Shown here piece by piece: positions 9,046 to 63,926 of a DNA stretch of 64,000 bases (the stretch's first letter is position 1; each line of letters opens with the position of its first letter). A model generated the notes under the pieces. The model worked only from the letters and a program-made list of their open reading frames with translations, was not told the origin of the DNA and ran no database searches. Source of the DNA: Candidatus Foliamicus sp. (GTDB taxonomy: Bacteria; Pseudomonadota; Gammaproteobacteria; Steroidobacterales; Foliamicaceae); assembly GCA_965206955.1 (NCBI GenBank), contig OZ242252.1, positions 2,307,771 to 2,371,770 of the forward strand, read 5' to 3'. The position numbers were made by a program, and so were the translations under genes.

Positions 9046-9145
9046 GCGCTGCGCTGATGCGCAAGGAGTAATGGAACGAGGGCATCCTGCCCTCGGCGAG
9101 GGCAGGATGCCCTCGTTCCCAGCGAAAGGATGCCCTCGTTCCCAG
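9046..9145. repeat. REP-like composite element, locus C
   Basis: GCGCTGATGCGCAAGGAGTAATGGAACGAGGGCATCCTGCCCTCGGCGAGGGCAGGATGCCCTCGTTCCCAG...GGATGCCCTCGTTCCCAGTC. It is nearly collinear with locus D (15322-15421). Confidence 0.85.
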
Positions 9146-9288
9146 TCAAACCGTGTTTCGTAATCGCCAACCTCCTCGGTTCAATCCGGCTTGCATTTTG
9201 GCTTTACAAAGCCTGAGCTGGGCGCCACCTTTGAGCCGGCGTCTGGGGTTTGTGTGCTGCGTGCATACGTATCGGGAGTAATCGAGTG

Positions 9289-10702: not shown

Positions 10703-10901
10703 TTCAACTCAAGAAACGGACGGACGGTTGCCCGTGTTTCGGCGCCTCAATGTTGGACTGTCCAATTGTAAGTCTGCGTATATTGTGCTATAGACGGTCA
10801 CGTAGCTAGTCCGGTTTCCAAGGGGGACGTTGGGAACTGATGTCGGCGTAGCGAAATCGTTGCCTCGGCTCTGGCAGAAAAACGCCACTGGGAGGCAATC
10901 C

Positions 10902-15321: not shown

Positions 15322-15421
15322 GCCGTTGCGCTGACGCGCAAGGAGTAAAGGAACGAGGGCATCCTGCCCTCGTCGGGGGCAGGATGCCCTCGTTCCCAGT
15401 AACGGATGGGCTCGTTCCCAG
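15322..15421. repeat. REP-like composite element, locus D
   Basis: GCGCTGACGCGCAAGGAGTAAAGGAACGAGGGCATCCTGCCCTCGTCGGGGGCAGGATGCCCTCGTTCCCAG...CTCGTTCCCAGTC. It abuts the thiolase stop codon. Confidence 0.85.
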
Positions 15422-19429: not shown

Positions 19430-19836
19430 TTGAGCGCAAACATCGCAAACGGGCGGCGGAAGAGGCCGAGATCAACATCACGCCGATGCTGGACATCGTG
19501 TTCATCATGTTGATTTTCTTCATTGTCACAACTTCCTTCGTAAAGGAGCTCGGAGTGGATCTCGACCGTCCGTCAAACGCGCCGGTCAAGGAGGAGAAGC
19601 GTTCCGAGGTCATCCCGGTTCGGATTGAAGCCAATGGGCAGATCTTTGTTGAGAACCGCCTGGTGAACGTAGGAGCGGTGCGGGCCAATATCGTTACCGG
19701 CCTTGCCGCCAAGCCGAACGCCACCGTGGTCGTGATCGCGGACCGCGACGCGGATTCCGGTTACATCGTAACGGTCGTCGATCAGGCCCGTGTGGCGGGC
19801 GCCGGCAAAGTTTCGCTGGCGGCCGCGTCGCGCTAG
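19426..19836 (+). CDS. exbD: biopolymer transport protein ExbD/TolR
   Basis: 136 aa. EINITPMLDIVFIMLIFFIVTTSF is the canonical ExbD N-terminal TM segment. ATGA overlap with exbB. Confidence 0.88.
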   Translation: MIERKHRKRAAEEAEINITPMLDIVFIMLIFFIVTTSFVKELGVDLDRPSNAPVKEEKRSEVIPVRIEANGQIFVENRLVNVGAVRANIVTGLAAKPNATVVVIADRDADSGYIVTVVDQARVAGAGKVSLAAASR

Positions 19837-19846
19837 GGGGTATGCT

Positions 19847-20254
19847 ATGCCGCAGATACGAAGGCGCAAACCGGAAGAAGAGGGCGAGATCAACATCACG
19901 CCGATGCTGGACATCGTGTTCATCATGCTGATCTTCTTCATCGTTACCACTTCATTCGTGAAGGAACCCGGCATCAACCCAAATCGCCCCTGGGCACAAA
20001 CGGCGGCAACCAAGGAGCGAGGCAACATCATGATCGCGGTTTCGGATAGCGATCAGATATGGATGAACAAGAAGCGGGTAGAACTCCACGGCATTCGACA
20101 GTTGGTTGAGGCCGCGCGGGCGGAGAACCCGGAAAGCAGCGTTATCATCGTAGCCGACCAGGCTGCGTCTACCGGCATGGTGATCGACCTGATGGATAAT
20201 GTGCGAGCTGCCGGCGTGACCAGCATTGCTTTGGCTGCGGAGGGAGTGGACTAG
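19847..20254 (+). CDS. exbD: biopolymer transport protein ExbD/TolR, second copy
   Basis: The ATG at 19847 gives MPQIRRRKPEEEGEINITPMLDIVFIMLIFFIVTTSF. The TM segment is identical to the first ExbD and the periplasmic domain differs. Confidence 0.85.
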   Translation: MPQIRRRKPEEEGEINITPMLDIVFIMLIFFIVTTSFVKEPGINPNRPWAQTAATKERGNIMIAVSDSDQIWMNKKRVELHGIRQLVEAARAENPESSVIIVADQAASTGMVIDLMDNVRAAGVTSIALAAEGVD

Positions 20255-20895
20255 TGATGAACCAGACAAGATGGCGCACGGTCGGATCGATCGTCGGCGG
20301 TGTATTTGTAGCACTTCTGTTGTTTCTGTTCATGAACACGCTGATCAGTGGCGGCAAGGGCAAACAGGGCGCGGCCACCGCAGGACAGATCGTGGACCTG
20401 ATCCGCGTGCAAGACGATCCAATCGTGCAGACCAAGCAGCGTGTTCGGCCCAAGAAACCGCCTCCGCCCAAGGATCCTCCGCCTCCGCCCAAACTCAAGC
20501 TTTCCAACGAGCCCAAACCGCAGAAAAATCCGATGCGTATCGATCTTCCCAAGATTGACGTTTCGGGCGCCGCCGGAGGTGGGCCGTTCATCGGAACCTG
20601 GGAACCCGGCGATCCCGCGGCCGAAGGCGAAGCAATTCCGATCGTGCGCATCGATCCCCAGTACCCGCGCGAGGCTCTGATGGACGGCACCGAGGGATAC
20701 GTCAAATTTGAAGTGCTGATCGGCACCGACGGCAGTGTGCTGGATGTAGAGGTAACCGAGGCGGCGCCCGGCCGAATTTTCGTTCGTAACGCGGTGCGCG
20801 CGGTGCGTCGCTGGAAATTCAAGCCACGCGTAGTTAACGGAGTTGCGGTGGAGCGTTGGGCCAAGACCAGCATCGTGTTCGAGCTGGATAGCTGA
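20254..20895 (+). CDS. tonB: energy transducer TonB (copy a)
   Basis: 213 aa. N-terminal TM segment, Pro-rich spacer (KKPPPPKDPPPPPK), and TonB C-terminal domain (YPREALMDGTEGYVKFEVLIGTDG...RRWKFKP). Confidence 0.88.
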   Translation: MMNQTRWRTVGSIVGGVFVALLLFLFMNTLISGGKGKQGAATAGQIVDLIRVQDDPIVQTKQRVRPKKPPPPKDPPPPPKLKLSNEPKPQKNPMRIDLPKIDVSGAAGGGPFIGTWEPGDPAAEGEAIPIVRIDPQYPREALMDGTEGYVKFEVLIGTDGSVLDVEVTEAAPGRIFVRNAVRAVRRWKFKPRVVNGVAVERWAKTSIVFELDS

Positions 20896-20933
20896 GGCCG
20901 AAGGCAGCGTCAGGCTTCGAACATTTTCCTGAG

Positions 20934-21575
20934 ATGGGAGGGTCGCCGATGAGACATGCAGTATGGCGCCGGGGCGCCTCGATAGCGGGCGGAACTTTCG
21001 TCGCGCTGGCGCTGTTCTTGTTGATGACCGTCCTTATTGACGGCGGACAGGGCCAGCCGGGTACAGCAACGGCGGGACAAATCGTGGATCTGATTCACCT
21101 GCAGGAAGAGGAAATCGTGCCCCGCAAGGTGCGCGTCCTTCCCAAGAAACCGCCGCGCAAGGAACCTCCGCCTCCCGTAAGAATCACGCAATCCAATGAC
21201 ATTGAGCCGCAAAGGGAACCGCTACGTATCGACTTCCCCACGATTGGCGCAACGGGCGGCGGGCCGATCATAGGACCCTGGAAACCAGGCGCCCCTGCGC
21301 CCGAGGGCGAAGCAATTCCGATCCAGCGTGTTAACCCGCAGTATCCGCAGCAGGCGCTGATGGACGGCACCGAGGGCTACGTCAGCCTTGAGGTACTGAT
21401 TGGCACTGACGGCAGGGTGCTGGAAGCAAAGGTGACCGAGGCCGCGCCCGGCCGAGTTTTCGTGGGTAGCGCAATCCGCGCGGTGCGTCGCTGGAAATTC
21501 AAGCCACGCGTAGTTGATGGGGTCCCGGTCGAGCGCTGGGCCAAGACCAGCATCGTGTTCAAGTTGGATAACTAA
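20934..21575 (+). CDS. tonB: energy transducer TonB (copy b, tandem paralog)
   Basis: 213 aa with the same architecture as copy a. The C-terminal domain is near-identical to copy a, including a 39-nt perfect DNA match. Confidence 0.85.
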   Translation: MGGSPMRHAVWRRGASIAGGTFVALALFLLMTVLIDGGQGQPGTATAGQIVDLIHLQEEEIVPRKVRVLPKKPPRKEPPPPVRITQSNDIEPQREPLRIDFPTIGATGGGPIIGPWKPGAPAPEGEAIPIQRVNPQYPQQALMDGTEGYVSLEVLIGTDGRVLEAKVTEAAPGRVFVGSAIRAVRRWKFKPRVVDGVPVERWAKTSIVFKLDN

Positions 21576-24533: not shown

Positions 24534-24566
24534 CAATCCGTGGCGACACTCCGGGTAGAACACATA

Positions 24567-24634
24567 GGAACGAGGGCTTCCAGCCCTCGACGAGGGCAGG
24601 ATGCCCTCGTTCCCAGGGGGGAGCCTCGTTCCCG
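24567..24634. repeat. REP-like hairpin pair, locus E
   Basis: GGAACGAGGGCTTCCAGCCCTCGACGAGGGCAGGATGCCCTCGTTCCCAGG...CCTCGTTCCC, between convergent xerD and qor. Confidence 0.85.
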
Positions 24635-24646
24635 GCGTGATAGAGG

Positions 24647-25627
24647 CTAATCGAGGGTGAGCACCAACTTGCCCTGAGTGAGGTTGTCCTCCATCAGGGC
24701 ATGGGCCTGGGCAGCTTGCTCCAACCGAAAGCAGCGCTGAATCACCGGCCGTAACTGGCCCGATTCAAGCAAGGGCCACAAGTGTTTGCGAATCGCTGTT
24801 GCGATAACGGCTTTCTCTTCCACGGAGCGCGGGCGAAGCGTGGAGCCGGTAATCCACAGGCGCGACAGCATGATTCTGCGCAAGTCAAACTGCGCCTGCG
24901 GCCCGCCCAGTGCGGCGATCAGCACCAGTCGCCCTCCCGGCGTGAGGCTGCGCAGATTGTCACGCAGGTAAGGAGCACCCACCATACATAGAATCACATC
25001 CGCGCCCCGGCCCCCGGTTGCTTGCTTGAAGGTCTCGGCCCAATTCTCGGTTCGATAACATGCACCTGCCCAGGCTCCCAGGCCCAGGCAGAAATCTACT
25101 TTCTCGGCGCTGCCGGCGGTCACGAAGACTCGTGCACCCAGCGCGGTACCAATCTGTATGGACGCCGTCCCGATACCGCTGGCGCCGCCATGCACCAGGA
25201 GGGTGTCCCCGGCCTCCAGCCGCCCCGAGTCCACCAGGTTGGTCCATACCGTGAACCAGGTCTCGGGAATCGCCGCTGCCTCCACCATGGACACACCCAC
25301 CGGTACCGGCAGGCAATGCACCGCCGGAGCCGCACAATACTCCGCGTATCCTCCGCCTGGAAGTAGCGCGCATACGCGTTCGCCCACCGCCGGTGACTTC
25401 ACACCCGGGCCCAGCGCCTCGACGTACCCCGCAACCTCAAGGCCCGGCCACTCCGGCGCCCCCTTTGGCGGTGGATATTGCCCCTGGCGCTGCATGCAAT
25501 CCGGCCGGTTGACACCGGCCGCCGCAACCCGCACAAGCACTTCGCCCGGGCCCGGCGTGGGTCGCGGGCGCTGTTCTACAACCAGCGTTTCCGGTCCTCC
25601 CGGCCTGGATATGGCTACGACGCGCAT
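24647..25627 (-). CDS. NAD(P)H:quinone oxidoreductase (zeta-crystallin/Qor-type MDR)
   Basis: The start at MRVVAISRPGGPETLVVEQ gives 326 aa. Cofactor-binding motif VHGGASGIGTASIQ. Confidence 0.85.
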   Translation of the reverse strand: MRVVAISRPGGPETLVVEQRPRPTPGPGEVLVRVAAAGVNRPDCMQRQGQYPPPKGAPEWPGLEVAGYVEALGPGVKSPAVGERVCALLPGGGYAEYCAAPAVHCLPVPVGVSMVEAAAIPETWFTVWTNLVDSGRLEAGDTLLVHGGASGIGTASIQIGTALGARVFVTAGSAEKVDFCLGLGAWAGACYRTENWAETFKQATGGRGADVILCMVGAPYLRDNLRSLTPGGRLVLIAALGGPQAQFDLRRIMLSRLWITGSTLRPRSVEEKAVIATAIRKHLWPLLESGQLRPVIQRCFRLEQAAQAHALMEDNLTQGKLVLTLD

Positions 25628-36538: not shown

Positions 36539-36546
36539 AGATCGCT

Positions 36547-36770
36547 TGCATGGAACAACCTGGGCCCGAGGGCTTCCAGCCCTCCACGAGGACAGGATGT
36601 CCTCGTTCCCAGCGCGTGTTCCCAGCGCGTCCGCGCGCCGGCGCCGGCGGAGTGGAAACTTGCATGGAACAACCTGGGACCGAGGGCTTCCAGCCCTCCA
36701 GGACGAGGACAGGATGTCCTCGTTCCCAGCGCGTGTTCCTTGCGCGTAAGCGCGGCGCGGGCGCTGTGAA
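36547..36770. repeat. two tandem long-form REP-like elements, locus F
   Basis: TGCATGGAACAACCTGGG(C/A)CCGAGGGCTTCCAGCCCTCC...GAGGACAGGATGTCCTCGTTCCCAGCGCGTGTTCC occurs twice, with copies starting at ~36547 and ~36661. Confidence 0.85.
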
Positions 36771-41968: not shown

Positions 41969-42053
41969 GTTTAGTGCAATCGAACTTTCGCAGGCATGAA
42001 TCCGGACGCAACCAGCCCGGATGAATGGGCTTTCCAGGAAAGGGCAGGAGGAA

Positions 42054-44402
42054 ATGATGTGTGGTCATCCAACAAGATTGGTCAAGATCCTGACCATATT
42101 CCCGGGGCTGGCAACAGCCGCGCTTTCCTTCTCCGCAAGCGCCCTCGGGCAGGACCCGGAGTCCCGGTCGGAGCCGGCGGCGGAACTTGAAGAAATCGTG
42201 GTCACCGCCCGCCGCAAGGCCGAGAACATTCGAACCGTGCCGATTTCCATTACCGCGGTTACGAATGACGAAATCCGCAGGTTGGATCTGCGTAGCGCAA
42301 CCGACCTGCAGCGCATCGTTCCGTCGCTCACCGCCACGGGGCGCCTCGGCCAGAACGAGGAATCACTCACCCTTCGCGGGCAGCGGGCAACCGGTGAGTT
42401 CATCGGTGCGGGCGCCGGATCGGCGGTAGTCAGCTATTTCGCTGAAGTCCCCGGCGCCAGCACCGGTCCTGGACTCTATCTGGATCTGGCCAACGTGCAG
42501 GTCCTTAAGGGCCCGCAGGGGACACTATTCGGGAGAAACACAACCGGGGGAGCCATTCTGTATGAACCCATGCGCCCCGAAGGCGAATTCTCGGCATACG
42601 TTCAGACTACTCTGGGAGACATGAATCGGCTGGATGTTGAAACCGTTTTCAACCTGCCCATTGTTCGCGATGTGCTTCTGCTTCGGGTTGCCGCCCAACA
42701 CCAGAAACGTGACGGTCTCGCCGTTGATGTCAACACCGGCGCCGAATACAACAATCGCGACCATTGGACCGCGCGACTCGGGATTCAATTCAACCCGACC
42801 GAGCGAGTCAGCAACTACTTTATTTTCCAGTCCGTCCGTTTCGAGGAGAACGGACCCGCTTCAATCCTGTACGCGGTCAATCCGCAAGCGCTCTTGTTTC
42901 CTCTATTGCAACCCCTTTTCAGCGCACAGCAGGAGCGAGGCATTCGCCGGGTTGCACTGGGAGTCAACAACAGCGAGAGCCGGGATACGCGGGTCCTTGT
43001 CAATCGAACGGAAGTCAGCTTGGGGAACGAAACAGGACTGACGAATGTCCTCTCGTACACCCGCGAGAAGGGCAATCGATCAGGCGATCTTGACGGAACG
43101 ACACTCGCGGTGGTGGATTCCTTAGGCGTTACCGGTTTTGGAAGCGGCTCCAACCCCAATCACTCGATCCTTACTGAAGAACTGCAATTGAGCGGCAACT
43201 TTGTTGACGGAAACGGAGAATGGAGGCTTGGAGCTTATCTGGAAAGGCTCAGGACAGAGGGCACTCAGACCTTTTCCCAACGGCTCTTTCTCGCTCAGTC
43301 CACCCACCAGCTGGACGCGCCGCAATCCGTCGATTCGGAAGCGCTTTTTGGGCATGTCAACCTTGACCTGGGCGTGCTTTCGGAGTCCCTGCAGGGATTG
43401 AATCTCTCGGCCGGCTATCGATACACATGGGATGCCGGCTTGCTGGGATTTGATTTGCTGGTTTATCCCGGCCAGCTGTTTCAACTCAATCAAATTCCCG
43501 ACCCGGCGCCTGGAGATCTGTGTTTTACGTTCCTGGCCACAGGCGCAACACACCCCAATTGCCTGGTTGAGGTTGATGGATCGGATAGCGGTCAATCCTG
43601 GAACCTTGGATTGGACTATCAGCTTGAAGACGGAAGCCTTGTGTACGGCAGCTATCGCCGTGGCTACAAGAGCGGAGGCTTCAATCCCGGTGTCGGCGTG
43701 TTCTTCGGAACCACGGTGCCGGAGTTCTCCTTTGGCCCCGAGGAAGTTGATGTCATTGAGTTCGGGTGGAAGGGAGCCTGGCCGCTTGGCGACTTGCAGT
43801 TCCGGCAGAATGCCGCGTTTTACAAGAGTTGGTACAGCGATGTTCAGGTTCTGAACAATGTAGTGATCGCCGGCGCCGCCACTACGGCGACGCAGAACGC
43901 GGCAAGGGCTGAAATCGAAGGAATTGAAGTTGAATCTGAAATTCAATTGGCCGAGTCCCTGAGCTTCACCTTTGCCTACGCATATACGCGGGCCAACTAC
44001 AAGGACTACGTTACTCCTGCCGGAGAGGATCTGAGTGGGTTGCCGTTCCTCTATACACCGAGACGCAAGTTCAGTTTGGGACTTTCCTTCGAAACGGATC
44101 TGCCCGATCAACTTGGAGAACTGGCTTTGTACGGCACCTATGCCTGGCAGGCCGAGATGTTCGGCGGTTTTACTACCGCCGATGTCCCGGGAACCACGAT
44201 ACCGTCATACGGCCTGGCCGGATTGCGTGTCGATTGGAACCGAATATTCGGAACGCGCCTGGACCTGGCCCTTTTTGTAAACAATCTCAATGATCAGGAA
44301 TACCGAATCGCCAACAATGCTCAATATGAATCGCTGGGCTACGCGATCACTCAGTACGGGGAACCGAGAATCTGGGCGGTCTCGCTCAGGTTCGACTTCT
44401 AG
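42054..44402 (+). CDS. TonB-dependent receptor
   Basis: AGGAGG RBS. Signal peptide, plug motif ELEEIVVTARRKAENIRTVPISITAV, VQVLKGPQGTLFG, and C-terminal ...VSLRFDF. Confidence 0.92.
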   Translation: MMCGHPTRLVKILTIFPGLATAALSFSASALGQDPESRSEPAAELEEIVVTARRKAENIRTVPISITAVTNDEIRRLDLRSATDLQRIVPSLTATGRLGQNEESLTLRGQRATGEFIGAGAGSAVVSYFAEVPGASTGPGLYLDLANVQVLKGPQGTLFGRNTTGGAILYEPMRPEGEFSAYVQTTLGDMNRLDVETVFNLPIVRDVLLLRVAAQHQKRDGLAVDVNTGAEYNNRDHWTARLGIQFNPTERVSNYFIFQSVRFEENGPASILYAVNPQALLFPLLQPLFSAQQERGIRRVALGVNNSESRDTRVLVNRTEVSLGNETGLTNVLSYTREKGNRSGDLDGTTLAVVDSLGVTGFGSGSNPNHSILTEELQLSGNFVDGNGEWRLGAYLERLRTEGTQTFSQRLFLAQSTHQLDAPQSVDSEALFGHVNLDLGVLSESLQGLNLSAGYRYTWDAGLLGFDLLVYPGQLFQLNQIPDPAPGDLCFTFLATGATHPNCLVEVDGSDSGQSWNLGLDYQLEDGSLVYGSYRRGYKSGGFNPGVGVFFGTTVPEFSFGPEEVDVIEFGWKGAWPLGDLQFRQNAAFYKSWYSDVQVLNNVVIAGAATTATQNAARAEIEGIEVESEIQLAESLSFTFAYAYTRANYKDYVTPAGEDLSGLPFLYTPRRKFSLGLSFETDLPDQLGELALYGTYAWQAEMFGGFTTADVPGTTIPSYGLAGLRVDWNRIFGTRLDLALFVNNLNDQEYRIANNAQYESLGYAITQYGEPRIWAVSLRFDF

Positions 44403-44596
44403 CCCAAGCTCCAAAAAACCGGCAGGTGCGGAACCAAAAAATGCGCCCATTTACCCTCTAGAGCGAGGTTCCGCACTTGCCGGTCCTATCCGCACGCCAT
44501 TGCCGGTCGCAACATACTCTTACGGGGCCAGACCTGAGATTCAATCCCAGCCCCTCCAGCCGGTAGGTAAGGGTGCAAGGGAAGACACGACATCTG

Positions 44597-46255
44597 ATGG
44601 CAAGGCATGATTGGTCAAGGACGCGCGGCGCTGCGCATCGAACCGGGAATTGCCGGGGCGCAATGACAGCGGCGCTGCTATCCGTGCTGGCGCCTGTTGC
44701 CGGGCTTGGAGCCGCAACGGATTGCGAGCCCAAAGGATCCCTCAGGCTGCAAGACACGGAGATTGTCTCTGCCCACTTCTACGACGAAGGCACGGTCAAG
44801 GATGCGGGCCGCCCCTTCCCGCCGACTTCTGTTCCGCGGCATTGCCGGGTTTCGGGCGTCGTACGGCCCGTGCCCAATTCCGAAATCGGCTTCCAGGTTT
44901 GGCTGCCGCAAGAGAACTGGAACGGAAGACTGATTGGTGTCGGAAATGGCGGTTATGGCGGCCGTATTCTCTTGCAAGGGGGTCTTGCCGAGGCCGTAAA
45001 GCGAGGTTACGCGGCCGTTTCGACCGACACCGGACATTCAGGTTCGGCCATCGATACACACTGGGCATACCAGGAGAAAGAAAAGATCATCGATTGGGGA
45101 CATCGCGCCGTTCACCTGATGACGGTCAAGGCAAAAGAGATTGTGCAAATACACTACGGCCGGCCGGTCGAAAAGTCCTATTTCATCTCTTGCTCGAACG
45201 GTGGGCGCCAGGGCTTGATGGAGGCGCAGCGCTATCCGAATGACTACGACGGGATCCTGGTCGGAGCGCCGGCCATTGATTTTACGGGCCTGGTCGCAGC
45301 CTTTGCCTGGAACTACCTTGCACAGAACGGCAGCAGCGAGAGTGTCATACCGCCCGCGTTCGCAAGCCACATTTCAAAGACAGTCAATGAGCAATGCGAC
45401 CACCTGGACGGGGTCAGAGACGGACTCATTTCCGATCCGCGCACATGCAGGGTCGATTTTGCAGAGTTCCTTTGCGGAGAAGAGCAAAGCGGCGACTGCT
45501 TGAGCAAGTCCCAACTCGAAGCGCTGCTGAAGATATACGGTGGTCCGAAAAATGGGTCCGGACAACAGATCTACCCCGGCTGGCCGGTCGGGGGAGAGGC
45601 AGGAACGAGTCCCGTCTCCGGCTGGGAAATCTGGACCCTGGGCACAAGACCCCACCAGCGTAGCTACGTCGATGGTTTCTTCCAGCACCTGCTCGGCCGG
45701 GGTTCCGGTTGGAGCGTCAGGCACATGGATTTTGATCACGACACACTTGAGGCGAAACGGGAATTGGGAAGTCTTATTGACGCGACCAACCCGGACTTAA
45801 GGGCATTTGCAGAAAAAGGCGGAAAGCTGATCATCTATCACGGTTGGTCCGATGAGGCGGTTCCCGCGGGCGGGAGCATTCGATATTTTGAAGATCTGCA
45901 GCGTTTCATGGGTGCGGAAAAGGTTGAGCAATTCGCACGACTTTACCTGGTGCCGGGCATGCATCATTGCTTCGGAGGGCACGGGCCGAGCCTGTTCAAT
46001 CATCTGACTGCGCCCATTTCTCCGGCAGATCCAAGCCGTGACATTGCCGCTGCCCTGGCAACCTGGGTGGAGCACGACGCTGCACCCGGGGCGCTGATTG
46101 CGGTTGAGCCGGAGAATCTCTTCGAGGCGACCTTCGACCTTTCCCTCACGATTCCCATACGGACGGGATTGTTGTGTCCGTACCCACAAAAGGCCCTGCT
46201 GCGGGGAAAGGCATTGGATCCCATGCTGGCGTCCAGCTACTACTGCAGCGATTGA
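44597..46255 (+). CDS. tannase/feruloyl-esterase family alpha/beta hydrolase
   Basis: Nucleophile context YFISCSNGGRQG and VPGMHHCFGG. Together these give the CS...HC disulfide-linked catalytic motif of the family. The start is ambiguous (44573, 44597 or 44663). Confidence 0.8.
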   Translation: MARHDWSRTRGAAHRTGNCRGAMTAALLSVLAPVAGLGAATDCEPKGSLRLQDTEIVSAHFYDEGTVKDAGRPFPPTSVPRHCRVSGVVRPVPNSEIGFQVWLPQENWNGRLIGVGNGGYGGRILLQGGLAEAVKRGYAAVSTDTGHSGSAIDTHWAYQEKEKIIDWGHRAVHLMTVKAKEIVQIHYGRPVEKSYFISCSNGGRQGLMEAQRYPNDYDGILVGAPAIDFTGLVAAFAWNYLAQNGSSESVIPPAFASHISKTVNEQCDHLDGVRDGLISDPRTCRVDFAEFLCGEEQSGDCLSKSQLEALLKIYGGPKNGSGQQIYPGWPVGGEAGTSPVSGWEIWTLGTRPHQRSYVDGFFQHLLGRGSGWSVRHMDFDHDTLEAKRELGSLIDATNPDLRAFAEKGGKLIIYHGWSDEAVPAGGSIRYFEDLQRFMGAEKVEQFARLYLVPGMHHCFGGHGPSLFNHLTAPISPADPSRDIAAALATWVEHDAAPGALIAVEPENLFEATFDLSLTIPIRTGLLCPYPQKALLRGKALDPMLASSYYCSD

Positions 46256-53446: not shown

Positions 53447-55018
53447 ATGAGCCAGGAAATTCTTCAGGAGCTATCCGAACTGCTGGGAAGCGACTACGTC
53501 ATTACGGATGATGCGGAACGCCGCTACTTCACGATGGACGTGTACAACGCGCGAGAGATGCCGCTGGCAGTGATACAGCCGGGCACCGTGGAAGAATTAC
53601 AGAAAGCTGCGCGTATCGCGCTCAACAACAACGTGGCGCTGGTGCCCCGGGGAGGAGGCGCGTCGTACACGGATGGCTATCTGCCTACGCGGGCGCGTTC
53701 ACTGCTGGTTGAAACGTCACGGCTGAACCGAATCGTGGAGATCAATGCCACGGATATGTACGTAACCGTGGAGCCGGCGGTCACCTGGGAGCGCCTCAAC
53801 GCCGCCTTGGCGAAAGAAAAGCTCCGCACGCCTTTCTGGGGACCGTTCTCGGGCCTGAAGGCTACGGTAGGCGGTTCCACATCGCAAAACTCGGCGAGCA
53901 TGGGTTCCGGCAACTACGGACTGTCCGCTGAATCGGTGCTTTCCTTTGACGTAGTGCTGGGCAACGGAGAATTGCTGCGTACCGGATCGGCCGCCATCAG
54001 CACTTCGGTCCCGTTCTTTCGCTGGTACGGGCCGGATCTGACGGGGTTGTTCACCGGAGACACGGGCGCGATGGGCATCAAGGCGCACATTACCTTGAGG
54101 CTGATCAAGCGTCCCACGCGCACCGGCACGGCATCGTTCGGTTTCGATACCTTCGAGGGCATGTCCTCCGGCATGTCCGCGGTGGCGCGCCTAGGGGTGG
54201 TGGCGGACAACTACGGCCTGGACCCGAAACTGCAGCAGGGCCAACTCACCAAGACCGACACCGCCGACCAGGCCCGCGCCGTGTGGAACGTAACCCGGGA
54301 TTCCAGCAATCCCTTCGAGGCGGTCAGCCGCCTGACACGGATGGCGCTGGCGGGCAAACGATTTTTCTCCGGCTTCAGCCATTCCGCGCACTATGTCGTG
54401 GAGGGCCACAGCGCCAGCGAGGTCAACTCCAAGCTGAAACTGGTGCGTGAAACCATGCGGCCGCACGGCACCGAAATAGCCAATACCGTACCCACCGTAC
54501 TCCGTTCCATGCCTTTTATTCCCATGTATTCCGTTCTTGGCGTCAACGGCGAACGATGGGTGCCCCTGCACGGAATCATGCCGTTTTCCAAAGTGCCCGA
54601 GTTTCGCCGCTTGCTGATGGCCGTGTACGAGGAGAACGCCGAGCGTATGAAGGAATTGCGCGTCGACAAAGGCGCCATGTTCATGACCATCAACTCCAAC
54701 GCGTTTCTTTATGAGCCGGTGTTCTACTGGGAGGACAGCCAGACGGTTTTTCATAAGCGGTTCATGCCCAAGGATTACCTGGCAACGCTGCCGGAGCACG
54801 CAGAAAACCCGGAGGGTCGGGCGCTGGTGGAAGAACTGCGCCAGCGTATTCTGGATCTCTTCTGGCAGGTGGGAGCCAGCCACCTGCAAATCGGCAAGAC
54901 CTATCCCTACCTGCGAGGCCGGCAGCCCGAGGCCGAGCGCCTGTTACGTGCGTTCAAGAGCAGCGTGGATCCGAAAAACCTGATGAATCCGGGGGCCCTC
55001 GGCCTGGACGCATCCTGA
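53447..55018 (+). CDS. FAD-linked oxidase (GlcD/vanillyl-alcohol-oxidase superfamily)
   Basis: 523 aa with the FAD-binding PCMH pattern VALVPRGGGASYTDGY. The substrate is not inferable. Confidence 0.75.
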   Translation: MSQEILQELSELLGSDYVITDDAERRYFTMDVYNAREMPLAVIQPGTVEELQKAARIALNNNVALVPRGGGASYTDGYLPTRARSLLVETSRLNRIVEINATDMYVTVEPAVTWERLNAALAKEKLRTPFWGPFSGLKATVGGSTSQNSASMGSGNYGLSAESVLSFDVVLGNGELLRTGSAAISTSVPFFRWYGPDLTGLFTGDTGAMGIKAHITLRLIKRPTRTGTASFGFDTFEGMSSGMSAVARLGVVADNYGLDPKLQQGQLTKTDTADQARAVWNVTRDSSNPFEAVSRLTRMALAGKRFFSGFSHSAHYVVEGHSASEVNSKLKLVRETMRPHGTEIANTVPTVLRSMPFIPMYSVLGVNGERWVPLHGIMPFSKVPEFRRLLMAVYEENAERMKELRVDKGAMFMTINSNAFLYEPVFYWEDSQTVFHKRFMPKDYLATLPEHAENPEGRALVEELRQRILDLFWQVGASHLQIGKTYPYLRGRQPEAERLLRAFKSSVDPKNLMNPGALGLDAS

Positions 55019-55057
55019 CCTGCCGCCTGGTACGCCTGGCCGTGCAACGCTTCCTAC

Positions 55058-55248
55058 CCAGAACCTGGGAACGAGGGCTTCCAGCCCTCGACGAGGGCAA
55101 GATGCCCTCGCTCCTTTGTTCCCTCCCCGTCAGCGCAACGGCGCCCGCTACGCGTACTTGCATGGAACAACCTGGGAACGAAGGCTTCCAGCCTGGGAAC
55201 GAGGGCTTCCAGCCCTCGCCGAGGGCGGGACGCCCTCGCTCCCAGCGG
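55058..55248. repeat. REP-like composite cluster, locus G
   Basis: CTGGGAACGAGGGCTTCCAGCCCTCGACGAGGGCAAGATGCCCTCGCTCCTTTGTTCC...TGCATGGAACAACCTGGGAACGAAGGCTTCCAGCCTGGGAACGAGGGCTTCCAGCCCTCGCCGAGGGCGGGACGCCCTCGCTCCCAG. Confidence 0.85.
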
Positions 55249-57003
55249 CCTTGCTCGCAGGCTGCGTGGCTCCTGTACTTGCTGTTTTGTTGCATCTGGA
55301 CTACGGCGCAGGCGCAGGACGACAACGCCGAGCGGGTTATCGGGGTGCTGTTCGTGATCCACGGCGGCGCCGAGGACTGGAGCGAACGAGGGGCGTTCGA
55401 CACCGCCGCGCAGCTGTTTTCCTACGATCACAACAGTCCCGTCTACCAGCGATTTCTCTGGGACCCGCGCATCTGGCCCCGGTTCATGCAGTTCGGCAAC
55501 GGCCCCAAGGAGGGGCTCAAGTACGGGTTCGAATACGAGCGCATTGGGGGGCCGAGCCCGTTCTATCGCATTACCCGTTCGCAGATGGCCATGCTGGAGG
55601 AGGAACTGGCGGCGCGTTCGCAGGATCTCGGGGTGCGATTCGTGGTCGATATGGCGTCATGGATGGCCGCCGACCCGAAGCACCACCCGTGGCCGAGATT
55701 GGTGTACGGCCCGGGAAGCCCTCAAGGGCAGCCGCTCACCTGGTGCGGGCCGGAGGGTGCTCCGTGGGCGGATTGCGATCCCCAACGGCATAACGTAAAT
55801 GGGCCCATACCTCGTCTGCTGGCGCAGGGAGTGACGGAAATACTGGCAGTGGATATGACCGTCGGCGGTCCCCGGTTTTCCAAGACGCATGACGTGATAA
55901 GCACACTGCGCCTGCGGCTTGCCGCTGAGGCGGGCGAGGACAGCGAGCCGATACCCCTGCGCTGGCTGAACGATCCCGCAGACCTGATGCGTGACTCCTA
56001 TCCGGCGGAGCCGGCCGGATGGACGCGTTCCCTGGGGCCGCCCGCCACCGATCGCAGCGTCGCGCTCGAAGGCCGTCCCAACCCGGTGGTGGCCTCACCG
56101 ATCCTGGCTTTGCTGCACGCGGAGGGCATCGCGCACCGGTTCAACCCGCAAGTCGCCGAAGCCGACACCGGTATCGTGCTGTTGGGCCACGCCTTGCGGC
56201 GCTACGACGAGTATTTCGACCCGAAGATCAACGATACGCTCACGCTGCATCGAATGATCGAGCTGGAGTTGCTGCGCCTTTACCCGGAACTCAAGCAGCG
56301 CCGGATTGTGGGCGCCTGGGCCGGCGACATGGTAACCAACGAGCAAATGCCGCCATCGCCCGCCGGCCGCCTTGAACGCAGCCGCCCCATGCGCGGTGAA
56401 AACCTCGGATACGCGTCGCTCTATGAACAACCCGGAGTACACCCCGAAGGCAAGTGGGGATTTCGTTACTGGGAGGCGCTGGATTTCCTGCTTGATGAGG
56501 GCGTCAAACACATCGTCGTGGCGTTTCCCCAGATCGTGGCCGATTCAGTGCTCAACCTCGTAGAGTTGCCAAACCAGATCGGCAAGGAGATTGGTTATCG
56601 CACCTGGCTGTACTACGACGACGGTGACTACACACGCTATCCGGAGGTAGGGAGTCCGTTCGCCGATTATTGGGGCGTGTGGGTGAATACCGAGTGCCTC
56701 GACGGCGAATCGAAAATTCCTTGCTGCCTGGAACTGGGCGGCTGTGCCGACGGACGAAGCTATCCGCCGAAGCGGCAAACGCCTTCCGACCGCCGGCGCA
56801 ACGATATGGATCCGTCCCTGGGCTTCGACGTGCCTGCATACGGACACCTGGGCTATGACCCGGCGGAAGGCAAACCGTCTTCCGACCAACCGGTGCAGCA
56901 ACAGTACCGGGGCAGCTGGGCAATGTGGCGACCTCCCAACGATGACCCGCGTATGGGCGCGCTCATGGCAAAAATGGTGCTGGATGCCGTTCGTACACGC
57001 TAA
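55162..57003 (+). CDS. secreted ferrochelatase-fold (class II chelatase-like) protein with insertions and a Cys-rich C-terminal region
   Basis: Blocks align with HemH: VIGVLFVIHGG, YERIGGPSPFYRITRSQMAMLEEEL, GVTEILAVDMTV, GIVLLGHALR, HIVVAFPQIVADSVLNL. Signal peptide ...AAWLLYLLFCCIWTTAQA|QDD. The only conventional start that keeps the signal peptide is the ATG at 55162, which lies inside the REP element. Confidence 0.6.
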   Translation: MEQPGNEGFQPGNEGFQPSPRAGRPRSQRPCSQAAWLLYLLFCCIWTTAQAQDDNAERVIGVLFVIHGGAEDWSERGAFDTAAQLFSYDHNSPVYQRFLWDPRIWPRFMQFGNGPKEGLKYGFEYERIGGPSPFYRITRSQMAMLEEELAARSQDLGVRFVVDMASWMAADPKHHPWPRLVYGPGSPQGQPLTWCGPEGAPWADCDPQRHNVNGPIPRLLAQGVTEILAVDMTVGGPRFSKTHDVISTLRLRLAAEAGEDSEPIPLRWLNDPADLMRDSYPAEPAGWTRSLGPPATDRSVALEGRPNPVVASPILALLHAEGIAHRFNPQVAEADTGIVLLGHALRRYDEYFDPKINDTLTLHRMIELELLRLYPELKQRRIVGAWAGDMVTNEQMPPSPAGRLERSRPMRGENLGYASLYEQPGVHPEGKWGFRYWEALDFLLDEGVKHIVVAFPQIVADSVLNLVELPNQIGKEIGYRTWLYYDDGDYTRYPEVGSPFADYWGVWVNTECLDGESKIPCCLELGGCADGRSYPPKRQTPSDRRRNDMDPSLGFDVPAYGHLGYDPAEGKPSSDQPVQQQYRGSWAMWRPPNDDPRMGALMAKMVLDAVRTR

Positions 57004-57007
57004 ACCC

Positions 57008-57165
57008 ATGGGAAGGAGGACACCCGGACCTCCGTCGAGGGCGGGGACGCCCTCATCCCCATGGAACAACCTGGGAACGAGGGCTTCCAGCCCTCGACGA
57101 GGGCAAGATGCCCTCGCTCCATTGTTCCTTGCTCGTCAGCGCGTCGGCGCCCGCAGCGAATACTC
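57008..57165. repeat. REP-like composite element, locus H
   Basis: ...CGAGGGCGGGGACGCCCTC...ATGGAACAACCTGGGAACGAGGGCTTCCAGCCCTCGACGAGGGCAAGATGCCCTCGCTCCATTGTTCCTTGCTCGTCAGCGCGTCGGCGCCCGC. Confidence 0.85.
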
Positions 57166-57187
57166 CCGTCGCTGCAGCTGACAGGAA

Positions 57188-58024
57188 ATGAGCAAGCGCG
57201 AGAGCCTCAGCCGCCGGGATTTGCTGGCTGGCGCTGGCAGTCTGGCGCTGTTCGGCTCTCCCTGGGCGTCACTCGCGGAGCAGCAGCCCACGGCGCTTAC
57301 CGGGCTCTCCACGCCACGGGACCACTTATTGGCATTGATTCGCCTTCAAGCCAGCCTGCGCGAGGAGGATGTGCCCTGGTGGTACAGCGGCATCATTTAC
57401 GGGGTCGAAGAAGGCCGGCCACCGCGTCCTCTATTCGGATTCGAAGGGATGGAGATGTACTGGATGCGCCATCTGGACGGCGAGGAATTCGAATTGATCG
57501 GACACACGGTGTCGTTCCTGCGGGATGCCGACAATGGCGACTGGCTGCGCGAGTGGCGCAATCCCTATACCGGCGAGCTGCTTTCGGTGCCGGCAGCAGT
57601 TCAGGGAGGAGGCGCCGGCAGGGGCTTCAATTATTCGGTGAAAGGCATACGGCCGACGCCTTTTATCTCGCAGATGCCGGAGCGCCCACCCGCTTACCGG
57701 ATCATCGCCGGAGGAGGGCAGGTCTGGCTCAGCAAGGAGACCGAATACCCGCCGGGCATGCAGCAGCCCCGATTGCAGCGCCAAACCCTGCACTGCCCGC
57801 TGCAACAATTCAACGACTCCAGCGTGGAGCGCCTGGACACCCAATTTGCCTCAACCGTGTTCATGCCCTGGCGTGACTGGATGAACATGGGTGAACACAA
57901 AGGCCACATGATCTGGCACGCAGCCGGCCTCAAACTCGCTTCAATTGACGCGCTTCCCCCCGACTACCGGCAGCGTTTGGAAGCGGAATACCCGGACAAG
58001 CTCTCAGCCCGCCCCGCAACGTAA
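57188..58024 (+). CDS. Tat-exported protein of unknown function (possibly DUF1838 family)
   Basis: Twin-arginine signal MSKRESLSRRDLLAGAGSLALFGSPWASLA. 278 aa with no recognisable catalytic motif. The family assignment is from memory only. Confidence 0.55.
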   Translation: MSKRESLSRRDLLAGAGSLALFGSPWASLAEQQPTALTGLSTPRDHLLALIRLQASLREEDVPWWYSGIIYGVEEGRPPRPLFGFEGMEMYWMRHLDGEEFELIGHTVSFLRDADNGDWLREWRNPYTGELLSVPAAVQGGGAGRGFNYSVKGIRPTPFISQMPERPPAYRIIAGGGQVWLSKETEYPPGMQQPRLQRQTLHCPLQQFNDSSVERLDTQFASTVFMPWRDWMNMGEHKGHMIWHAAGLKLASIDALPPDYRQRLEAEYPDKLSARPAT

Positions 58025-61113: not shown

Positions 61114-62946
61114 TCAGCGAAACGCGCCGTAGCCGGTCATTTTCGAAACGTCGGGATAGAAAATTCCCAGCGCCGCCTGGTTGTTGGAACGCGTCGAGAA
61201 AATGATGGCGCCTTCCCGGGTGACGTCCAGGTTGGGATTGTCGGCCTGGCGGGGTTCCGGGTAATAGGTGAACGTTTCCGTGTCCGGGTCGAACCGGACC
61301 AGCGCGCCGCCCAGTCCGCCGTCGCCGAACCAGATCTTGTCCTCAGGGTCGGCAACGATGCCGTAGGGCCTCGATGCCTTGACCTTCGAGAATGGAAGGA
61401 TGTCGTATTCCTTCTGTGCCCCGGTGGCCGGGTCCAGCCGTCCCAGTCTTCCGGAGCTGGCGACCGAGTACCAGATCGTGCCCTTGGAGTCGGATGCAAG
61501 CCGGTTGATTGCGCAGGGCTTAATCAATGAGGGGTACTCCATGAACTCTTCAGTTTCCGGATCGAAGCTCGTGACGGCACAGCCGAACAGTTCAGCGAAC
61601 CAGACGATGCCCTGCTGATCCACTTCTATTCCGTAGGGGAAGGAGTGCGCCGTGGGGATTTCCCACAACGTGATGTTTTTCGTCCGGCGTTCCCATTTTC
61701 CGAGTTTGTTACCGCGGATCGCGGTGAACCACACGTCGCCGTTCTGCGCCATGTGCGGGCTGTGGCCGCGAATGTTGCCCACGACTCCTCTTTCGTCGAC
61801 CACCACACCCTCAGGATCCATCGGGTAGCGATCGATCTTTCCTGTACTGGGATCCAGCCGGCCCAAATGCTGGCCCTGGAATTCGGCCCAGAAAACATGG
61901 CCTTCACTGTCGATAGTCAGGTCATGCGGAAAGATGTACGACCAGATCGACTGCGGGTCGCCTTTTTTCTTTCCGTACATGTCGGTTTCCGGATTGTTTT
62001 CGTCATAGCCAATCGGAAAGTGGCTCCACTGCGCGGTGCGGGGGTCGACGCGGCTAAGACCGATCAGGCTGTTGGAGCCCCACAGATTGCCGTCGTTGTC
62101 GAGCATCGGGCGATGCAGCCGATGCTTGAAAGGTTCGTTGGCTGATCTGAGGGACAGGTCGGCGGCCGGATGCAGCGGAGTGAGATACTCAATGAACATC
62201 GCCGAGGCCAGCGTATCTTCGTTAAGCGGATACTCCACGTCGAGGCGCAAGACCTTGGGGAGACTATCCGGACCGAAGTTTTCCGCCAGGTAGTCAGCGA
62301 GGATTTCGTGCTCCTCATCGGTAATGCTGCGGGCTGAGTTGGGATCGGCAAACGGACCGCTGGGATCAAGCATGATGCCTATCATCACGTGCCACTGCGC
62401 TCGTCCCATGCGGTTGGCAGGCAGGAAGGAATGCCCGTGGCAGGTCAGGCAGGTGGGCTCGGCCAGGTCCCTGCCACGCCCGGGGGGATACATCTCGTCA
62501 TAAGAGACCAGTTTCGCGTCCTTGCCGACGCCACCGAATTGCGGTCCCGGCTTGGAGCTGTCCTTCAGGGTCAGTGGATTGTCCGGCCCCGGACGCATCT
62601 CAAGGTCCAGCTCAATTTCCACTTCACCCTGAATTCGCAGCATCTCGTGCCGGGATGTCAGGCCGTTCTTCTCGACCCAGATCCGGTAACCGCCGGGCAA
62701 AAGATTGACCGCGCGATACTCGCCGTTGTGCGTGTACACCGTGTATAGCATGTTCCGGTCAAGGTTTTTCGCATACACCTGCGCGGCCGTGAACGGCGTG
62801 TCAGCCGATACCTTTCCGGTGAGAGTGGCAGTGCCTGGGATTGCCGATGCGCCGTGTGCCAAAGTGGCGGTGCTCGCCGCGATCAACACCGCAGACACGA
62901 CATGCCGGCGTGCACCGCGGAAGTGTTTCCAAGTAATTGTTGACAT
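61114..62946 (-). CDS. secreted paralog (P3): carboxypeptidase-regulatory-like domain + CXXCH cytochrome c motif + Vgb-type beta-propeller
   Basis: The ATG at 62946 gives 610 aa with a signal peptide (...ATLAHG|AS). It is collinear with P2 (13443..15296) and with both halves of the pseudogene P1. It contains EPTCLTCHGHSF. Confidence 0.8.
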   Translation of the reverse strand: MSTITWKHFRGARRHVVSAVLIAASTATLAHGASAIPGTATLTGKVSADTPFTAAQVYAKNLDRNMLYTVYTHNGEYRAVNLLPGGYRIWVEKNGLTSRHEMLRIQGEVEIELDLEMRPGPDNPLTLKDSSKPGPQFGGVGKDAKLVSYDEMYPPGRGRDLAEPTCLTCHGHSFLPANRMGRAQWHVMIGIMLDPSGPFADPNSARSITDEEHEILADYLAENFGPDSLPKVLRLDVEYPLNEDTLASAMFIEYLTPLHPAADLSLRSANEPFKHRLHRPMLDNDGNLWGSNSLIGLSRVDPRTAQWSHFPIGYDENNPETDMYGKKKGDPQSIWSYIFPHDLTIDSEGHVFWAEFQGQHLGRLDPSTGKIDRYPMDPEGVVVDERGVVGNIRGHSPHMAQNGDVWFTAIRGNKLGKWERRTKNITLWEIPTAHSFPYGIEVDQQGIVWFAELFGCAVTSFDPETEEFMEYPSLIKPCAINRLASDSKGTIWYSVASSGRLGRLDPATGAQKEYDILPFSKVKASRPYGIVADPEDKIWFGDGGLGGALVRFDPDTETFTYYPEPRQADNPNLDVTREGAIIFSTRSNNQAALGIFYPDVSKMTGYGAFR

Positions 62947-62973
62947 CGCTCGATAACTCCCTGGAAGTTTTCG

Positions 62974-63079
62974 CAGCGGGCGCCGCTGCGCTGACGCGCA
63001 GGGAACCAACGCTGGGAACGAGGGCGTCCCGCCCTCGACGGAGGGCAAGATGCCCTCCCTCCCAGATTGTTCCATGCAA
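62974..63079. repeat. REP-like composite element, locus I (opposite orientation)
   Basis: GCTGCGCTGACGCGCAGGGAACC...CTGGGAACGAGGGCGTCCCGCCCTCGACGGAGGGCAAGATGCCCTCCCTCCCAGATTGTTCCATGCA. Confidence 0.85.
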
Positions 63080-63229
63080 GTGTGAATGCAGCCCACATAT
63101 CCCTGAGGCTTGCGCATAGTCGCACGCGGACCAGGGTTTGTAAAGGATGGCGCCAGCACCTAAAATGCGAGTCGAATTGTCCCTGGCGGCCCGGTATTAC
63201 CTCACCTTGCACGGCAAAAAGCGATAGCC

Positions 63230-63805: not shown

Positions 63806-63810
63806 GGCCC

Positions 63811-63926
63811 TGCATGGAACAACCTGGGAACGAGGGGTTCCGGCTCCCCGATCAGGGTCGGGGACAGGGTCTCGACGAGGGCAAGAAACGTCATTCCCGC
63901 GAAAGCGGGAATGCCCTCGTTCCCAG
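63811..63926. repeat. REP-like long-form element carrying a nested second hairpin type, locus J
   Basis: TGCATGGAACAACCTGGGAACGAGGGGTTCC...GGGTCGGGGACAGGGTCTCGACGAGGGCAAGA[AACGTCATTCCCGCGAAAGCGGGAA]TGCCCTCGTTCCCAG. Confidence 0.8.

Follow-up and report, generated by a model that had tools for sequence, protein, structure and literature searches.

Ferrochelatases and exported members of the chelatase superfamily

Proteins with a ferrochelatase fold are known almost entirely as metal inserters of the cytoplasmic or matrix side, and the few exported ones are small proteins of the CbiK type: the periplasmic CbiK of D. vulgaris (CbiK-P; 2xvx/2xvz) and FetB/IhtB of P. gingivalis (9B86), both of which are exported metalloporphyrin binders with a class II chelatase fold (PMC13065792). 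The DNA analysed here, hereafter the window, is a stretch of 64,000 nucleotides from the presumably sponge-associated bacterium Candidatus Foliamicus sp. (contig OZ242252.1, positions 2,307,771 to 2,371,770; G+C content about 60%), which carries at 55162..57003 on the forward strand a gene for an exported protein of 613 residues with a ferrochelatase fold. The protein is a homologue that keeps this fold and the cleft histidine, and not a functional member of the ferrochelatase family. It is no ferrochelatase in the functional sense because the defining glutamate and histidine are absent, the thresholds of the sequence models are not reached and the compartment is the wrong one.

The cleft of the canonical enzymes is well described. 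In CpfC with bound coproheme, Tyr12 (Tyr13 in B. subtilis) and His182 lie on opposite faces of the macrocycle, 2.7 and 3.2 Å from the iron, and His182 is hydrogen-bonded to Glu263, a pair that metal binding and deprotonation both require (PMC7340540). In human FECH, Met76 is found opposite the catalytic His263, while His263, Glu343 and His341 constitute the network for proton abstraction. Every His263 variant is dead, the E343K variant is inactive and co-purifies with porphyrin, and even E343D is impaired (PMC9133952). Across class II chelatases the active site can move between the two pseudo-symmetric halves of the protein, and CfbA contains two symmetric pairs of ligands (PMC11301274).

Fold and family assignment

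A preliminary description of this DNA had aligned the protein block by block with HemH. The peptide strings that it quoted are all present in the open reading frames (ORFs) of the window (YERIGGPSPFYRITRSQMAMLEEEL, LLGHAL, ADSVLN and NTECLDGESKIPCCLELGGCADG, with SRRDLL in the next ORF at 57188-58024), and the Bacillus HemH strings that it gave are correct, as judged from a HemH sequence identical to PDB 1ak1_A over 310 of 310 residues. The reading frame from the ATG at 55162 is further supported by the ORF list, by structure prediction and Foldseek, and by 372 homologs of about 600 residues.

In a Pfam scan of the window protein, PF00762 (Ferrochelatase) scored 19.5 bits against a cutoff of 27 and covered residues 92-160 only; the same scan at E ≤ 1 gave nothing but this weak match, and no match to the CbiK family. 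TIGR00109 of NCBIfam reached 11.2 bits against a cutoff of 124.6, and a profile of 23 family sequences matched none of the PDB sequences, ferrochelatases included. Comparison by hhalign was uninformative when a single HemH sequence was used or when the alignment was global, and informative for local alignments at low mact and for sub-domains. With a HemH alignment of the B. subtilis, human and E. coli sequences, the local profile-profile alignment paired residues 4-453 of the query with HemH 1-300 (Prob 54%, E = 1.3e-4), and the sub-domain alignments recovered the N-terminal block (Prob 90%, E = 1.6e-6) and the beta7/pi-helix block (Prob 62%, E = 7.5e-5).

The AlphaFold2 model of the mature protein, based on an alignment of 114 sequences, has a predicted local distance difference test (pLDDT) of 94.8 and a predicted TM score (pTM) of 0.94. 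Its best 44 Foldseek matches in the PDB are all ferrochelatases, including human FECH, B. subtilis HemH, Listeria CpfC and the yeast enzyme, with E-values from 1e-9 to 2e-6 and TM scores on the target of 0.54-0.72. The next match is the periplasmic CbiK of D. vulgaris (2xvz; E = 1e-3, TM 0.38), and behind it come periplasmic-binding and LacI folds of a generic kind, with E-values of about 1e-2. A DSSP assignment of the model recovers the full set of eight core strands as well as the main helices, in the order of HemH. About 250 of the roughly 560 mature residues belong to four large additions, of which three follow beta2, beta4 and beta6 and the last is a C-terminal extension of about 110 residues. 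The model thus predicts the two-domain class II chelatase fold for the window protein, as the preliminary description had proposed together with the large insertions; the evidence for the fold is weak at the level of sequence and strong at the level of structure.

Residue pattern of the cleft

Two invariant histidines are predicted to lie on opposite faces of the cleft. His67 (VIHGG, end of beta1; codon 55360..55362, forward strand) aligns with Tyr13 of B. subtilis HemH, Met76 of the human enzyme and Leu13 of the E. coli enzyme and is a histidine in 114 of 114 sequences; it was absent from the preliminary description. His343 (LLGHAL, end of beta5; codon 56188..56190, forward strand) is the counterpart of HemH His183 and human His263. 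It is equally invariant (114/114) and is preceded directly by strand 285-290 of the DSSP assignment, and a conserved FDPK motif is found 10 residues downstream of it, compared to GDPY at 11 residues downstream of His183 in HemH.

The segment DSVLNLVE (56542..56565, forward strand) takes the place of D-H262-L-E264-VLYD at the start of the HemH pi-helix in the hhalign alignment, with D461-S462-V463-L464 on D-H262-L-E264 (D-H341-I-E343 in the human enzyme). Position 462, which corresponds to H262, is serine in 112 and asparagine in two of the 114 sequences and never histidine, and position 464, which corresponds to E264, is leucine in 112 and isoleucine in two and never glutamate. The five most divergent members have serine or threonine at the former and leucine or valine at the latter. 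The claim that the pocket histidine is kept and the histidine and glutamate of ADHLE are lost therefore extends from the window protein to the whole alignment. Glu468 and Gln472, aligned on later acidic positions of the pi-helix, are both conserved in 114 of 114 sequences. When the five most divergent full-length representatives are included, the invariant residues comprise H67, H343, H450 and H562, the cysteines 195, 205, 512, 521, 522 and 528, and D231, T233, R238, K241, D353-P354-K355, R408, R411-G412-E413, N471, Q472 and E476. The insertions and the extension contain invariant-rich motifs of their own, namely ERTRxMRGENLG, YGHLGY and DPxRYNVDG.

As far as the alignments tell, the family retains the cleft histidine without the residues that make it a catalytic base, and has a new histidine on the other face. 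A tetrapyrrole pocket whose centre lies between two histidines is the classical arrangement of a six-coordinate haem. Tetrapyrrole or metal handling would be the most economical reading of the function, and the explanation that is tentatively preferred here, with a confidence that stays somewhat below even, is that the exported protein binds a tetrapyrrole (haem) through two axial histidines and is probably redox-linked. Within this reading, the protein is a descendant of ferrochelatase with the class II chelatase fold, exported via Sec and lipid-anchored in most relatives. The scaffold, the tetrapyrrole cleft and the cleft His343 have been retained, the pi-helix glutamate has been replaced by leucine and the histidine by serine, and His67 has arisen on the opposite face of the macrocycle, at the position of Tyr13 in Bacillus and Met76 in human. 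Iron insertion would have been lost. The axial ligands H67 and H343 would instead hold a metallotetrapyrrole between them, most likely haem b that the protein acquires in the periplasm, and the six invariant cysteines would form disulfides. Such a protein would take part in periplasmic redox chemistry, by binding haem or by transferring electrons, and not in haem or iron uptake. The analysis shows the fold, the export, the residue pattern, the distribution of the family and the gene neighbourhoods, whereas tetrapyrrole binding, bis-histidine ligation and the redox role are inferred.

Several observations weigh against a bis-histidine haem protein. The alignment of the beta5 block, which contains H343, is not significant on its own. 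The positions of the porphyrin propionate ligands of CpfC and FECH are not kept, since the Tyr46/Tyr123 position is a tyrosine in only 59 of 114 sequences and the Ser53/Ser130 position is an aspartate in 103 of 114, which argues against the canonical binding mode of proto- or coproporphyrin. The invariant Asp231 after beta3 could form a SirB-like metal site of the N domain together with His67, and catalytic competence would then be conceivable. In addition, the gene neighbourhoods, which were counted in 80 loci from GTDB genomes, are heterogeneous, with redox carriers adjacent to the gene in only about 12 of them (about 15%), and a fusion to CxxCH motifs is confined to a single lineage.

The possible H67/D231 site is central to a rival explanation, in which the protein is an active periplasmic chelatase or dechelatase comparable to D. 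vulgaris CbiK or P. gingivalis FetB. It would employ a non-canonical residue set, e.g. His67 and Asp231 of the N domain with His343, and move Fe, Mg, Mn or Co into or out of an exogenous tetrapyrrole. Class II chelatases can have their metal ligands in either domain, as shown by His10/Glu43/His76 in the N domain of SirB and by the symmetric CfbA (PMC11301274); H67 follows beta1 like His10 of SirB, and D231 and T233 after beta3 are invariant. Exported CbiK-type chelatases exist (PMC13065792), and 2xvz is the first structural match outside the ferrochelatases. A chlorophyllase/PETase-like hydrolase is encoded at five loci and Rieske oxygenases recur nearby, but the chlorophyllase match is generic for alpha/beta hydrolases. 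The glutamate that is indispensable in ferrochelatases (PMC9133952) is leucine or isoleucine in all 114 sequences, a second histidine is absent from either of the 'second ligand' positions, and the loci provided neither an iron-regulation signal nor uptake genes. An active chelatase is considered unlikely.

The non-conserved propionate ligands are also compatible with reuse of the scaffold for a non-tetrapyrrole ligand, either in a periplasmic binding protein or in an enzyme, with a functional site of invariant His, Arg, Glu and Asp residues that stem largely from the four big insertions. Many of the invariant residues are indeed located in the inserted and extended portion, periplasmic binding proteins share the fold, as reflected by the weaker Foldseek matches, and the neighbours are often genes of small-molecule catabolism, encoding Rieske/VanA-like, luciferase-like, short-chain dehydrogenase/reductase (SDR), amidohydrolase and major facilitator superfamily (MFS) proteins. 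However, the two invariants of the core cleft are exactly those residues that flank the macrocycle metal in ferrochelatases (PMC7340540), and the porphyrin-cleft motifs RIGGxxP and DPK are retained. Reuse for another ligand appears rather improbable.

Export and the invariant cysteines

The hydrophobic core of the signal peptide and its cleavage-type site, AQA before Q, occupy residues 34-51 (55261..55314, forward strand) and were delimited from the sequence, the orthologs and the leaders of the family. The core, AAWLLYLLFCCIWTTAQA followed by QDD beyond the cleavage site, is located 3' of a repeat that is described below and is conserved among orthologs, and more distant repeat-free orthologs have textbook leaders, such as MNARTTLLACWLCILLCTAGYAQA followed by E in the ortholog L002. 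A hydrophobic leader is present in 108 of 113 family members and a lipobox in about 60%, while an RR motif occurs in only five. To judge from these leaders, Sec export is a family trait and lipoprotein export is often the route. The signal peptide reported in the preliminary description is thereby confirmed, and a wrong start as its source was rejected at the family level, in view of the 108 leaders and of the clean leaders of the orthologs L002 and L016. Divergent members end in PKD-like or CarboxypepD_reg-like domains, read here as tails typical of surface proteins.

Cys195 and Cys205 are located in the insertion after beta2 (55744..55776, forward strand) and are invariant in 28 sequences that include the most divergent members. 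The other four cysteines form the stretch C512-x8-C521-C522-x5-C528 of the C-terminal extension (56695..56745, forward strand) and are all invariant, which makes the Cys-rich tail of the preliminary description a property of the family. In a further explanation, the motif C-x8-CC-x5-C and C195/C205 would bind an iron-sulfur cluster or another metal as a redox-active part of the protein. A parallel would be the [2Fe-2S] cluster that animal and some bacterial ferrochelatases carry in their C-terminal extension, with C196/C403/C406/C411 as ligands in human FECH. The invariance of all six cysteines even in the most divergent members, the start of the extension where the cluster-binding extension of FECH begins, and the electron-carrier neighbours are in line with a cluster. 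On the other hand, known periplasmic Fe-S proteins are exported in folded form via the twin-arginine translocation (Tat) pathway, but the leaders here are of the Sec or lipoprotein type (RR in 5/113). The even number of cysteines in an exported protein suits three disulfides, and their spacing is unlike any ferrochelatase cluster motif, which together render a metal cluster very improbable.

Extent of the family

A word-indexed search retrieved the 372 homologs, none of which has a Pfam domain and all of which are named 'hypothetical protein'; no characterised family is concerned. An exhaustive search with a hidden Markov model against 1.84 billion representatives at 50% identity gave 181 matches at E ≤ 0.001, consisting of about ten full-length clusters and otherwise of fragments. 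Among the matches listed (150 of 181), no bridge to canonical ferrochelatases was found, all being family members or fragments. The metagenome-assembled genomes (MAGs) that carry members are labelled as Gammaproteobacteria (Foliamicus, Woeseiaceae, Chromatiales/Chromatiaceae and Steroidobacteraceae), Rhodospirillaceae/Alphaproteobacteria and Thermodesulfobacteriota, and their record titles mention, among others, Lake Baikal, a sea cave and mud. Sequence identity between member groups is still 45-55%, and the family looks compact and strongly constrained by this measure. The locus has its closest relatives, at 93% protein identity, in complete chromosomes assembled as MAGs of Candidatus Foliamicus (Gammaproteobacteria); gammaproteobacterial MAGs with isolate codes that presumably refer to sponge-microbiome studies come next.

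A deep-branching member, P0125 (986 residues), contains four CxxCH motifs and TSP3/dockerin-like Asp-rich repeats at its N-terminus. Genes of this type occur in at least two tandem copies at one locus, where the end of the contig truncates a third gene downstream (L082, 495-3455, 3606-6566 and 6647-7987); in each complete copy, the Cys-rich loop contains a large insertion and the C-terminal domain is PKD-like. The literature searched contained nothing on an exported ferrochelatase-like family and likewise nothing on Candidatus Foliamicus. Within the class II chelatase superfamily, the proteins form a family that had not been described and that is, at minimum, well suited to become a new Pfam entry.

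Gene neighbourhood and the FAD-oxidase–DUF1838 module

In the window, the chelatase-like gene is the middle gene of a triad. It is preceded by a gene for a flavin adenine dinucleotide (FAD) oxidase of the FAD_binding_4 family with 523 residues and without signal peptide (53447..55018, forward strand; Pfam E = 1.2e-33), and followed by a gene for a DUF1838 protein of 278 residues with the twin-arginine leader SRRDLL (57188..58024, forward strand; PF08894, E = 1.4e-19). The DUF1838 assignment is well above its gathering threshold (71.3 bits against 25), and the homologs are likewise precomputed as PF08894. In its leader, SRRDLLAGAGSLALF, R9 and R10 are at least 90% conserved in 59 homologs, in line with the twin-arginine signal noted in the preliminary description, while Pfam TAT_signal stays below its threshold, at 11.5 against 22.7. 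The AlphaFold2 model of the DUF1838 protein (m93146edfc846; pLDDT 88.8) is all-beta and barrel-like and has no PDB match above TM 0.3; a Riemerella haemophore was the top match and was disregarded as an analogue at a TM of only 0.27. The invariant residues of DUF1838 include a GHxxWHA motif (H240, W243, H244). No publication on the function of DUF1838 was found in the literature searched.

The FAD oxidase gene is located directly upstream of the chelatase-like gene in 21 of the 80 loci. DUF1838 is encoded directly downstream in about 26 (the Foliamicus clade, a Woeseia-type clade and the locus L017), at a distance of 3-7 kb in another five (four from Rhodospirillaceae, one from an alphaproteobacterial MAG) and within 8 kb in 32. 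In relatives without repeat insertions the three genes are only about 20-35 bp apart and therefore form an operon, which in the Woeseia-type order consists of FAD oxidase, chelatase-like gene, DUF1838 and cytochrome c. The adjacency to the Tat-type protein that the preliminary description noted is thus found in about 26 of 80 loci and is specific to certain clades. An obligate DUF1838 partnership was rejected, as the FAD-oxidase–DUF1838 pair is found without an intervening chelatase-like gene in genomes that carry this gene elsewhere. In two of these, CP070671 and OZ244928, the module starts with Lhr, SnoaL/LEH, (alpha/beta hydrolase) and FAD oxidase and continues with DUF1838, a second DUF1838, a CoxS-like 2Fe-2S protein and cytochrome c. 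FAD oxidase and DUF1838 are the core pair and a conserved module in its own right, and the chelatase-like gene is located between the two in only two clades, in which the second DUF1838 and the 2Fe-2S gene are absent.

The position of the module next to an Lhr helicase gene recurs in several gammaproteobacterial lineages (L083 5850-12706, L085 4282-10947 and the window, 53447-58024); the alpha/beta hydrolase of the Lhr-adjacent module is double and the second DUF1838 is the longer one. In this module an RR leader is present on both DUF1838 paralogues and a lipobox on the cytochrome c, while the 2Fe-2S protein has no leader, and neither has the flavoprotein of the window. This distribution of leaders suggests an uncharacterised periplasmic dehydrogenase of the Tat 'hitch-hiker' type.

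In a more far-reaching idea, the family is a new class of extracytoplasmic haemoproteins on a ferrochelatase scaffold, with one axial histidine per domain, and acts either as a haem-b electron-transfer subunit or as a demetallase. As an electron-transfer subunit, it may belong to a Tat-exported flavoprotein–DUF1838 dehydrogenase and replace the 2Fe-2S subunit of other lineages. As a demetallase, it may strip metal from environmental tetrapyrroles (haem, chlorophyll derivatives) while sparing the ring, in what may be a setting of marine-sediment and sponge-associated bacteria. In this specific form the idea is doubtful.

Other partners vary. A high-potential iron-sulfur protein (HiPIP) is encoded directly downstream of the chelatase-like gene in five loci, and a cytochrome c follows DUF1838 in seven. 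DUF4397 with an L,D-transpeptidase is the immediate partner in about eight loci, and the chlorophyllase/PETase-like hydrolase is located directly downstream or nearby in five Rhodospirillaceae or alphaproteobacterial loci. A block of MFS, ABM-like and Rieske/VanA-like genes occurs in about eight loci, with the individual gene clusters in 5-14. Further immediate partners are an exported metallo-beta-lactamase with a Tat amine oxidase, a luciferase-like monooxygenase and an SDR.

Tests of haem or iron uptake

The preliminary description had also suggested a link to TonB-dependent receptors (TBDRs) or haem uptake, which was not seen: recurrent TBDR, ATP-binding cassette or haem-utilisation neighbours are missing from the 80 loci. 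In the window, TBDR-like ORFs are present at 4716-7202, 10830-12323 (Plug domain only) and 42021-44402, together with a TonB/ExbD cluster at 19.4-21.6 kb, and all of them are more than 10 kb away from the chelatase-like gene. No Fur box was detected upstream, where the best match reached 9-14 of 19 positions (mean 11.0 against a background of 10.5), and neither a cobalamin nor any other riboswitch was found in the window and 13 diverse loci. A haem- or iron-uptake operon was rejected on these grounds. A canonical hemH was found by tblastn neither in the window nor in the 80 fetched loci. Because of the negative results for uptake and the association with HiPIP, cytochrome c and CxxCH motifs, a redox or haem-holding role is tentatively favoured over nutrient acquisition.

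Start codon and REP-like repeats

The reading frame of the chelatase-like gene is open already from a GTG at 55042, and the ATG at 55162 is located inside a dispersed element resembling repetitive extragenic palindromes (REP-like). Two such paired-hairpin elements at 55050..55250 overlap the annotated start and the first 30 or so codons, and about 33 N-terminal residues (MEQPGNEGFQPGNEGFQPSPRAGRPRSQ...) are encoded by the repeat. The exact start in the window is uncertain because of this position of the ATG within the repeat. For the near-identical relatives P0001 and P0002, gene callers picked differing starts, and in the more distant orthologs L002 and L016, from which the repeat is missing, the leader is short and clean. 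Additional hairpins at 57037..57128 are located in the spacer between the chelatase-like gene and the DUF1838 gene.

Each element has either one or two hairpins of the form GAGGGC-(5 nt)-GCCCTC, bordered by GGGAACG...CGTTCCCAG; the folding energy of one unit is -34 kcal/mol. At least 10 copies with 22 hairpins, mostly intergenic, were assigned to the repeat families D1-D4 and are located at 1324-1471, 4148-4195, 9047-9127, 15324-15404, 24541-24657, 36545-36757, 55050-55250, 57037-57164, 63020-63070 and 63809-63887. Copies that invade the 5' ends of ORFs give rise to spurious or extended reading frames, which concerns the start of the chelatase-like gene, the ORF at 57061-57876 and the N-terminus of the ORF at 61114-63159 on the reverse strand.

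Other features of the window

The ORF at 61114-63159 (reverse strand) and its paralogue at 13443-15296 (forward strand) encode a Vgb-lyase/SGL-type beta-propeller with a CarboxypepD_reg-like domain; the former further contains a CxxCH motif (CLTCH) and matches SorB cytochrome c weakly. A third paralogue is possible at 9250-10702 (forward strand), where the ORF 9250-10233 has a sub-threshold CarboxypepD_reg match only. The DNA repeats D6/D7 (9974-10677 and 14148-15271, 75-76% identical) represent a duplicated block that also holds the TonB-dependent receptor fragment at 10830-12323. The TonB-system cluster (19454-19971 and 20254-21575) contains tandem duplications as well: two segments of 100 nt, 88% identical, resemble by eye the transmembrane motif of ExbD/TolR, and a 300-nt pair (20566-20865 and 21246-21545, 81% identical) links two ORFs of 213 residues, the second of which has a TonB_C domain. 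A protein of the tannase/feruloyl-esterase family (44573-46255, forward strand) is encoded directly after the TonB-dependent receptor at 42021-44402 (forward strand) and before an AMP-binding ligase, an arrangement that suggests uptake and breakdown of aromatic esters. This region is about 9 kb upstream of the chelatase-like gene and has no linkage to it in other genomes.

Comparison with known systems

With the HemH/PpfC/CpfC ferrochelatases (PF00762; 1ak1, human FECH 1hrk, L. monocytogenes 6sv3), which are the best structural matches by seven orders of magnitude, the family shares the two-domain fold with strands and helices in the same order. It also shares the YxRIGGxSP-helix block, the cleft histidine after beta5 with the subsequent DP motif, and a recognisable ADxxxxL segment of the pi-helix. 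Unlike HemH, it stays below every sequence-model threshold, is longer by about 250 residues, which are spread over four insertions or extensions, and is exported. H262/H341 is replaced by serine, E264/E343 by leucine and Tyr13/Met76 by an invariant histidine, the propionate ligands are not conserved, and six invariant cysteines are present. Inactive ferrochelatase scaffolds are represented by the pseudoferrochelatase of C. elegans and by human E343K, which binds porphyrin tightly (PMC9133952). However, the nematode protein lacks the catalytic His263, which the window family keeps, and neither of the two is exported, expanded or part of a conserved bacterial family.

In SirB and CfbA, His10 and His9, respectively, are located directly after beta1, like the histidine of VxHGG here (PMC11301274). 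Both pair this residue with a second histidine after beta3 (His76/His75), where the window family has DMT and no histidine; its second invariant histidine is instead the pseudo-symmetry mate after beta5. To our knowledge, one histidine after beta1 combined with one after beta5 has been described for no known chelatase. CbiK-P and FetB are precedents for members of the superfamily that are located outside the cytoplasm. They are proteins of about 270 residues that belong to the CbiK family and have kept chelatase activity, FetB being 37% identical to Salmonella CbiK, whereas the proteins described here have about 600 residues, are closest to HemH and not to CbiK (TM 0.38, E = 1e-3) and differ in the arrangement of their histidines.

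If haem binding is true, the chelatase scaffold would have been put to a new use, in a periplasmic haem protein or haem handler, and the family would be a natural experiment on the migration of the class II active site between two domains. It would also offer the first functional handle on the FAD-oxidase–DUF1838 module, which is widespread in uncultured marine and sponge-associated Gammaproteobacteria. Compared with the described members of the superfamily, the novelty of the family lies in an exported scaffold that is doubled in size, lacks the catalytic glutamate and histidine and bears one histidine on either side of the pocket.

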